Source: Octopus vulgaris
Taxonomy: Eukaryota
Length of the DNA: 64,000 bases
Assembly: GCA_951406725.2 (NCBI GenBank)
Contig: OX597817.1
Coordinates: 63,798,001 to 63,862,000 of the forward strand
Direction: 5' to 3'
The notes beneath the pieces were generated by a model that ran no database searches, was not told the DNA's origin, and saw only the letters and a list, made by a program, of their open reading frames with translations. Shown piece after piece: positions 25,962 through 28,900 of the stretch (position 1 is its first letter; each line of letters begins with the position of its first letter). Made by a program: the position numbers and the translations under genes.

Positions 25962-28900
25962 ATCTCTCGATCTAACTATCTGTCTACGATCATATTGTGA
26001 AGATCTTTACACTCATCGTAACACAGTTTTGACTAATAAATTTATGGACATATTCTGTAATACATTACAACAATAATACTGAAATTTTATCTATACCTTG
26101 ATACAACCATGATACTAACGACAAAATTAGTCCTTCATATAAGTTAAGAATTTGTTGTTGTTGTTGTTATTGTTATTGTTATTCTTTAGCCTAAGAATAG
26201 TAACAGAAAAAAGTAATTAGATAAAATTTGAGGAAATGGTAAAGGTTGAGATGGTAAATAATTATGATGTGAATAAAGTACAGAATTCAAGAAGATTGAA
26301 TTCTGTACTTTATACAGAAGAGAACAATTGATCAAGCAATAGAATGTAAAGATCCAGTATGGAAGACTTAGCCTTAGATACTGTTTGAACTTTCAAATGC
26401 ATTTCCAGAGAACTGTTCCAATTTTCATATATTCGGATTACTAAGTGCGTTAGTGTGGCTGTCGTATTTATTTTAAATGTTGTAGGAGTTGTATCTCTCT
26501 CTATATATATGTCTGGAATTGTTAGTGGTAACAGGAGATTGAAAAGAAAGTCTTTTCTGATTTCAATACGAAAAACAAATGCTTATTCTGTCTTAATCGC
26601 AGCATTTTCTTTTGCAATGCTTCCAATTGATGATACTACGTCGCATTAACTATCTTTCCTCCAGAGTATCAAACCACAATACAAGCTATATTATCCTGTA
26701 CCAGTCCTCTTCAGTAATAAAACCCATTTCTCTTGGGTCTGTTCCTTTTTATGTATTGCATATCAATTTTGAAATTACACGAAAATATATTAAGTAAAAC
26801 ATAAAGAGGTGATTTTCTTCGATCACAAAAATAAAATTATCGATAAAAAAAAGCTTAGCACATCATAGACACCTACAAAAGAACAACTTCAGACATATCA
26901 TAGCACCACAAAAATATATATATCCAAATATATTTTGAAACAAATAGTACTATATAAAACCTTGCAATAGGTCATTTTCGTTTAAAGAAAAATGCTTAGA
27001 TATATCCGGCATATTGGCTACAAAGTTACCTTTACGTTCGCACGTCTGTGTGTGTGTGTGTGTGCGTCTGTGCATGTGTATGCGTCTGTGTTTGTATGTG
27101 CGTCTGTGCGTGTTTGTGCGTGTGCGTGTGTCTGTGCGTGTGTGTGTGCGTCTGTGCGTGCGTGTGTGCGCACGCCTGTGTTTGCACATGTGTATGAGTG
27201 CATGAGTTTGTATACAGTAACAATTTTCAACATATCTTCCTTACTATTTCTATCTAAGTTTGAAATCGATGGAACACCGCTGGTAATTACCTTCTATGCA
27301 GACAACTGTGAAGCGAAGATTGTTGGAAAACGAAGTCCATCTAAGTCTTATTCGGAGATTATTGGAAAACGAAGTCCATCTAAGTCTTATTCGGAGATTA
27401 TTGGAAAACGAAGTCCATCTAAGTCTTATTCGGAGATTATTGGAAAACGAAGTCCATCTAAGTCTTATTCGGAGATTGTTGGAAAACGAAGTCCATCTAA
27501 GTCTTATTCGGAGATTATTGGAAAACGAAGTCCATCTAAGTCTTATTCGGAGATTATTGGAAAACGAAGTCCATCTAAGTCTTATTCGGAGATTATTGGA
27601 AAACGAAGTCCATCTAAGTCTTATTCGGAGATTATTGGAAAACGAAGTCCATCTAAGTCTTATTCGGAGATTATTGGAAAACGAAGTCCATCTGAGTCTT
27701 ATTCGGAGATTATTGGAAAACGAAGTCCATGTAAGTCTTATTTGGTTTATTGCGAATTATTAGATACATATGTAATTTTATAATTGGTAACATGCATGCA
27801 TAGCAAGAGATATCATTTGATGCAGTTCTGTCTAAATCTCCCTATCTAACTATTTCTCTCTCCGCTACACAAATACACAACCGCACGCCCACACACACAC
27901 TGACACAAACACTGATTTGCACACACACACTGACATGCACTGACACGCACACATACAGAAGGAGAGAGAGAAACAGATTGACACCCAGAATACAAGCTAA
28001 TTCAGAATACCTGAAATATATGTCGTGCTCAATTGCATTTATTTATCCAAAAGCCTTAGCTTTAGCGTTTAAAAACAGATATTAAAACCTACCTGCTTTT
28101 CTAAAGCAAGCAGGGAAAAGTACTGGGAATCTTCTTATGGATATGTTTCGGAATGATTGGCCCTCTTCAGAAGTGTACTAAGATTTGTTGGCTACCTAGA
28201 GAAATCGCTATATACGTATAACAGTAGCTTTCAAAAGTATAACATTAACAGCTATTTTGATTGCACGTTGTTCCGGTCATTTCACCTGAAAATGAGTATA
28301 AGACCAATTGTAGAGAAGAGCCCTCTTCATCCAACTGTCCCATCTAGAGTCAAGTTGAAAGGGCCGAGAATGTGTGTAAATCTCCTCGTAAAAGAGTTAG
28401 CAAAACCATAATACATGTTAACATGTCGTGCTCAATTGTGAATGGCAGCGAAGGGTTACGACTATAAATATATGGTGGGAACATATATTCTGTATGTATG
28501 CTAAACCGCAGCTGCCAGCCTATACATATTTTATTTTAGTTTGTGTTCTTTGATTCATTGGAGAGCTGAAACATCGCTTTCAGTGTAAAATGTTTTTCCT
28601 TCGTATCGTCTCTATTCACATATTATGGGCCAAATATTTTTGTTAGCTTTGTTAATATATGTGAGATTTTTAGATAATGGAGCTAAGAACTGGTAGCTAT
28701 TCTCTGCTTTGGTTGAGGCGTATTGGATGAAGACGGCTGACGCAACAAACTGGTGTAAAATGCTTCTCCATGTCTTTTGAAGTCCTCAGAAATGTTTGAT
28801 CAGTTTACGCAAACATTTCGTGAAGCAGTTGTATATTTGAGGGCAACCAAATACCCAGGTAAACGAAAGACTTTTGAATTATCTTCACGTCTTGGATATG

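Follow-up and report, generated by a model that had tools for sequence, protein, structure and literature searches.

An in-frame minisatellite from an exon-intron junction encodes repeated decapeptides with predicted processing sites in a predicted secreted four-cysteine protein of Octopus vulgaris

Our analysis concerns a 64,000-nt stretch of the Octopus vulgaris genome (assembly GCA_951406725.2, contig OX597817.1, positions 63,798,001 to 63,862,000 of the forward strand; hereafter the window) and, within it, gene A, whose third exon carries a tandem array encoding ten near-identical decapeptides set between Gly-Lys-Arg (GKR) sites. Gly-Lys-Arg is the convertase, carboxypeptidase and PAM signal for C-terminal amidation, and a first-pass annotation made from the sequence had proposed that the gene may be a new multi-copy amidated peptide precursor caught at birth. 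We favor, at a probability of roughly one half, a more modest reading, in which a real in-frame minisatellite, copied from the boundary between exon 3 and intron 3 of a recently duplicated gene, serves as a spacer that can be excised and is tolerated, rather than selected, in this relaxed paralog, and the ten decapeptide amides would be by-products.

The array in gene A and in public sequencing runs

A tandem-repeat scan of the window found one array at 27317-27742 (period 39, 10.9 copies, 98% matches). In register it comprises 11 units of 39 nt, each made of the last 24 nt of exon 3 followed by the first 15 nt of intron 3, as the first-pass annotation had described. Its account of the donors was equally accurate, since position +1 has changed from G to C in ten of the 11 units and only the last unit keeps GT. 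Exon 3 is 390 nt longer than that of the neighboring gene B (472 against 82 nt), the coding sequence recomputes to the claimed excess of 387 nt over B, and all three introns of gene A have GT-AG ends. The spliced frame runs open into exon 4, as had been stated, and gives a protein of 270 amino acids (aa) that is identical throughout to a deposited 'hypothetical predicted protein [Octopus vulgaris]' (P0001). Splitting this protein at GKR reproduced the reported peptide counts, namely 11 GKR sites and ten decapeptides (eight SPSKSYSEII, one SPSKSYSEIV and one SPSESYSEII); the computed MH+ of SPSKSYSEII-amide is 1109.58, and the two variant amides come to 1095.57 and 1110.53. The claimed signal peptide agrees with a hydrophobic N-terminus, where hydropathy is 2.2-3.4 in windows starting at residues 1-8 and falls to 0 by residue 12. 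The ten array units differ by 1.4% on average, and every variant among them is non-synonymous. The 813 nt of coding sequence contain no stop or frameshift, the four core cysteines and all splice sites are intact, and the parent domain is complete, with all invariant residues present.

The array is confined to this locus and is present in sequence data outside the assembly. An array-specific 24-nt pattern gave nine matches in the 2.8-Gb genome, all inside the array, and none in the reversed control, which rules out chance or a dispersed repeat. We compared four public sequencing runs, carrying three organism labels, with positions 27175-27394 of the window, a stretch that does not include exon 4. 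In all four runs a 69-nt contig matched the array with 0 or 1 differing letter; its length is that expected of a collapsed 39-nt cycle (39+30), and all 39 of its 31-mers require at least three units. Because this collapsed repeat contig occurs in 4/4 runs, the array is not an assembly artefact, and its reality outside this assembly, on which the first-pass annotation had made its claim depend, is supported. In run X17, which is large and DNA-like, the array contig has a depth of 562.8 against 41.5-60.8 for the neighboring contigs; the depth ratio comes to 6-14 fold, according to the yardstick chosen, and the figure for the window allele is 8.1, summed contig depth not being equal to true copy number. 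The flanking letters of X17 differ from the window at 3 of 30 positions, and this run therefore represents another haplotype.

Sister gene A' and a proposed route to the array

A genome search with exon 3 returned a copy at 94% identity, 66 Mb from A, which we call A'. Over the block common to both genes, A and A' differ by 5.0% substitutions (588 of 11,725 aligned sites). The 82-nt exon 3 of A' closes with one unit, which matches the last unit of A at every base, and the majority array unit stands only 2 of 39 bases from this ancestral unit. One difference is the donor G>C and the other a T>C; through them, codons that would read Cys and Leu encode Ser. These comparisons bear out the earlier proposal that the array originated by amplification of an exon-intron junction. 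The accompanying claim that gene B preserves the ancestral state holds insofar as B is unexpanded, but B is a distant and older paralog (dS 0.39 against A), and judged by sequence divergence the closest unexpanded copy of A is A', outside the window, from which the ancestral state is best read. Records of A/A' type from O. sinensis and O. bimaculoides are unexpanded. Further relatives in the genome are gene C, beside A' (A' and C together at G000:C4:129.62-129.66 Mb); gene D on contig 10 (G000:C10:23.21 Mb); and a broken partial A/A' copy on contig 5 (L025, G000:C5:116.264-116.269 Mb), which holds exon 2 and flanking introns at 90-95% identity, with a frameshift and a stop.

The route that we propose begins with duplication of the ancestral gene into A and A', now 5% apart, and tandem repetition of a 39-nt stretch across the third donor of A, both of which the sequence shows. 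The repeat would have been silent while the upstream GT was intact, much as in human F7, where a 37-bp variable number tandem repeat (VNTR) in intron 7 spans the donor and the most upstream intact donor is used (PMC1557585). The donor G>C and the T>C separate the repeated unit from the ancestral one and probably preceded the main amplification, because they are common to all ten copies. Splicing at the sole intact donor, at 27731, would then have made 390 nt exonic, and slippage or unequal crossing-over would have brought the array to ten copies. The F7 minigenes described in PMC1557585 offer a guide to such splicing: when upstream repeated donors were inactivated the next intact donor became active, and when several were inactivated exon skipping occurred too. 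In both genes, then, the unit spans an exon-intron donor and the first intact donor is, or is predicted to be, the one used; in F7, however, the donors are kept and the array is intronic and silent, whereas in gene A ten donors are dead and the repeat is predicted to be exonic, which would make the gene a natural counterpart of the F7 mutant constructs.

A second known system, the antifreeze glycoprotein of notothenioid fishes, arose when a short junction element of a duplicated trypsinogen gene was amplified into a coding repeat (PMC3449122, PMC11687183). The likeness is that an intron-exon junction element of a duplicated secreted-protein gene became an in-frame coding repeat in both. As described in those sources, the antifreeze unit is 9 nt long and lies on the acceptor side, most of the parent gene was lost and the function is proven; in gene A the 39-nt unit lies on the donor side, the parent domain is retained, a donor-killing switch is involved, a predicted cleavage/amidation signal was already present in the unit and the function is putative. 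In the literature searched, we found no amplified junction that carries a cleavage and amidation signal so as to give a neuropeptide-like precursor layout.

The features discussed here are collected in Table 1, in which donors are scored as matches out of 11 positions to the donor consensus.

Table 1. Positions of gene A, its array and related features in the window
Feature	Position	Strand	Remarks
Gene A exon 1, coding part	17647..17659	+	start codon and first 4 signal-peptide codons; GT donor at 17660
Gene A exon 2	24945..25114	+	remainder of the signal peptide (hydrophobic); two helices predicted
Gene A exon 3, expanded	27259..27730	+	472 nt (A', B, C: 82 nt)
Unique 5' part of exon 3	27259..27316	+	two predicted strands and Cys78
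Array	27317..27745	+	11 units of 39 nt, each with 24 nt from the end of exon 3 and 15 nt from the start of intron 3; 11 GKR, ten decapeptides; predicted disordered loop
Ten destroyed donors	27341..27693	+	G>C at +1; first 27341, then each 39 nt, last 27692
Sole intact intron 3 donor	27731..27736	+	top match to donor consensus within 27262-28000 (9/11)
Possible cryptic donor 5' of array	27283..27288	+	8/11; frame-shifting if used; A' contigs do not use it
Gene A exon 4, coding part ending at the stop	29861..30018	+	three core Cys, two strands, C-terminal helix
Block common to A and sister A'	17198..32280	+	5.0% substitutions; A' at G000:C4:129.62-129.63 Mb, minus strand
Gene B, an older paralog lacking the expansion	43795..55718	+	exons 43795-43807, 46742-46914, 51943-52024, 55561-55718; 141 aa = P0012

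A and A' are inverted copies, with C lying upstream of A' and B downstream of A. On sequence, this arrangement fits an ancestral cluster in the order C-A-B that a large inversion would have broken up, with a copy of A left at each breakpoint. The A-type and C-type genes of O. bimaculoides have near-adjacent ids. The deposited Octopus vulgaris model of A' (P0002) has a wrong N-terminus joined to exon 4, and spliced contigs support a four-exon, 142-aa form. Beside gene B, a 1-kb tandem duplication at 42006-44021 (97.5% identity) presents exon 1 of B and its upstream region twice. Elsewhere in the window, a degenerate 49-nt tandem repeat at 58468-58788 (6.5 copies, 75%) has no long open frame in any of six frames, and 34-nt AT-rich and 10-nt repeat blocks alternate at 5077-7421, with an inverted relative at 14633-14965 (14.6-15.0 kb); these blocks look like the repeated ends of a mobile element.

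The host family and its conserved glycine-basic loop

Protein searches found relatives of gene A in Argonauta, four abalone species and a chiton; the family takes in P0003-P0007 and P0009-P0021 together with genes A, B, A', C and D. Four Cys and the KR are invariant in 17/17 aligned proteins, and Gly directly precedes KR or RKR in all 20 domains of 18 relatives (octopus, argonaut, abalone, chiton). The Gly and the basic run sit in a Cys-flanked loop, with 13-17 aa between the flanking Cys, and in the A/C lineage, where the distance from the Cys has changed, the Gly has shifted by one residue along with the basic run. With this Gly and basic run in 20/20 domains of relatives, the GKR is inherited, not new, and the amplification therefore duplicated a predicted processing site that was already there, within a loop that tolerates changes in length. 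In addition, the chiton protein consists of three domains linked by KR-Gln, and the abalone proteins have KR-Gln after the signal peptide, a pattern that suggests that the host family is a processed secretory precursor. Of the earlier amidated-precursor reading, this much stands: processing is plausible. Criteria of Gly plus dibasic residues for processing and amidation have also been applied in PMC5996578.

The family appears to lack a description. P0001 matched 0 Pfam families at E<=10, and we found no Pfam entry or published study of the host family; the decapeptide gave no literature match, in searches whose coverage of short peptides is incomplete, and the searches turned up no paper that mentions the peptide or the gene ids by name. 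AlphaFold2 places the KR of the unexpanded protein between strands 79-81 and 90-99, and in the 270-aa protein gives the core a pLDDT of 84-92 and residues 85-215 nearly all below 50, a model in which the predicted fold stays intact around the array insert. Anti-lipopolysaccharide factors (ALFs) are recognized by three helices on a four-stranded sheet and a Cys-closed basic hairpin, and the dsRNA-binding domain (dsRBD) by an alpha-beta-beta-beta-alpha fold. The structural scores of the host protein against the dsRBD fold and the ALF structure 2JOB lie within the range of common arrangements, and the protein differs from both in showing no listed sequence match to them, in its predicted secretion and in its four core Cys; no ALF profile or solved ALF chain was listed among the matches of the family in the Pfam scans or the PDB profile searches. 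We describe the host as an unnamed family of secreted proteins with four Cys, spread across molluscs, in which a Gly-(R)KR loop is conserved and a topology resembling that of dsRBD or ALF proteins is predicted.

In one alternative the KR is left uncut and is the basic end of a hairpin that a disulfide closes, like the one in ALFs; the array would then insert 130 disordered, Ser-rich residues and so weaken or alter a defence protein made of one chain. We think this quite improbable. In the favored reading, the insert would loop out, disordered, between Cys78 and the Cys that follows it, and cuts at each KR would leave a parent-like two-chain core held by a predicted disulfide; it is because such cuts would leave this core that the insert could be tolerated. 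In proinsulin, the C-peptide is likewise a spacer between dibasic sites whose removal leaves a disulfide-linked two-chain core, though its fold is unrelated and spacer removal in gene A is a prediction. The peptides released from gene A would be raw material, and any role for them is hypothetical.

Selection, transcripts and competing explanations

Divergence between A and A' points to relaxed constraint. Synonymous divergence (dS) is 0.056 and non-synonymous divergence (dN) 0.049, giving a dN/dS of 0.88 and a rate equal to the 5.0% non-coding divergence, against 0.35-0.49 for older paralog pairs. The coding changes comprise 5 synonymous and 15 non-synonymous, where 6.3 non-synonymous would be expected at a ratio of 0.4 (P=0.002), and the excess falls on both branches (8 on A and 5 on A', with 125/136 codons polarised with C). 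Nor does the open frame of the array need selection, since simulated random duplications across the intron 3 donor were in frame and stop-free in 1095 of 4235 cases (26%).

Evidence on expression comes from two RNA-like runs, X1 and X2, whose spliced contigs have exon 2 and exon 4 as loose ends and which therefore contain mRNA. All of these spliced contigs are A'-type by four diagnostic bases (27296, 27313-27314 and 27322) and by the start of exon 4. The array contig is present in both runs at depths of 17.1 and 28.4, against 33.9 and 324.1 for the A' junction contig, and may represent unspliced RNA or DNA; divided by the 8.1-fold multiplicity, it stands at about 6% and 1% of the A' junction contig, a weak hint of a low level of A, as contig depth cannot rank genes. 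At window position 27256, X2 also shows the same exon 3 joined to two different exon 2 ends (loose-end agreement 0.88, at depths of 97.5 and 292.5), which suggests one more allele or paralog.

These data bear on a second alternative, in which gene A is decaying: with its donor moved 390 nt downstream, exon 3 would be skipped or spliced at the cryptic donor at 27283, little 270-aa protein would be made, and the array would be an unselected by-product. Skipping beside next-donor use was indeed seen in F7 constructs with several dead donors (PMC1557585), and in gene A it would bring a stop into frame as the third codon of exon 4; the cryptic donor scores nearly as well as the intact one (8/11 vs 9/11), and its use shifts the frame. 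No A-type spliced contig was seen in the runs over the compared stretch, protein searches returned no A-like protein from O. sinensis though A', B, C and D turned up, and the protein diverges at the neutral rate. An undamaged frame of this length, with its core cysteines and splice sites preserved, and array sequence in both RNA-like runs nevertheless speak against decay, to which we give little credence.

The more ambitious possibility is that gene A is a multi-copy amidated precursor born in the common-octopus lineage, in which a donor-killing change made a silent minisatellite coding and so multiplied an ancient GKR, the resulting two-chain secreted protein and ten half-former-intron peptides being kept by selection and SPSKSYSEII-amide acting as a signal, venom or defence peptide. 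Its layout is that of a textbook precursor, with a hydrophobic N-terminus, 11 GKR and ten near-identical peptides; the host family seems to be a convertase substrate; the donor-killing change was probably fixed ahead of the amplification; and the unit recurs in every run, under all three labels, at about 6-14 times neighboring depth in X17. Mollusc multi-copy precursors with x-Pro starts are known, such as APGWamide/SPGWamide (PMC5996578), and share with gene A a signal peptide and a series of short repeats, every one with Gly and a dibasic site behind it. Unlike them, gene A showed no sequence link to a known family in the libraries searched, its repeats lie inside a folded four-Cys domain and its processing is predicted. 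Beyond the lack of a Pfam family or of a paper on the peptide, this possibility is weakened by the uniformly non-synonymous unit variants, the relaxed dN/dS and, as a weak hint, the A'-type spliced contigs and low array depth in the RNA-like runs. The first-pass suggestion of a new functional peptide at birth is thus not supported, as the GKR is inherited, A/A' dN/dS is near 1 and the spliced contigs in the two RNA-like runs are all A'; we consider a selected precursor unlikely.

Several points weigh against our own favored reading. One of only two fixed changes struck the GT, for which the chance with two random changes is 0.10, and both removed non-Ser residues, which hints at selection. The dN/dS near 1 rests on 20 changes, is common to both lineages and might be a blend of positive and purifying selection. 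The recurrence of one identical unit under three organism labels shows persistence and, together with the intact frame, Cys and splice sites, counts against a purely neutral view. Cleavage of the parent at GKR is read from conservation, and GKR could instead be a conserved turn; the predicted disulfide pairing is read from strand symmetry rather than from coordinates. Finally, no contig in the four runs, as compared with 27175-27394 (exon 4 lying outside), joins the array to exon 2 or exon 4.

How precursors come to hold peptides repeated between GKR sites usually has to be deduced from genes so old that their intermediates have vanished. At gene A every step is readable, with a sister gene 5% away, two bases of difference between the units, one donor-killing switch and an array that is nearly uniform. 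With or without a role for the peptide, one can test directly at this locus whether a junction amplified at random gives rise to a peptide that is processed and amidated, and its ten dead donors are a natural trial of splicing at the first intact donor. The locus also brings to light a secreted family, spread across molluscs and so far unstudied, whose predicted processing signal is conserved. Should the birth of a selected precursor prove true, gene A would provide a dated, stepwise route to repeat-type neuropeptide precursors, with the unexpanded sister as a control.
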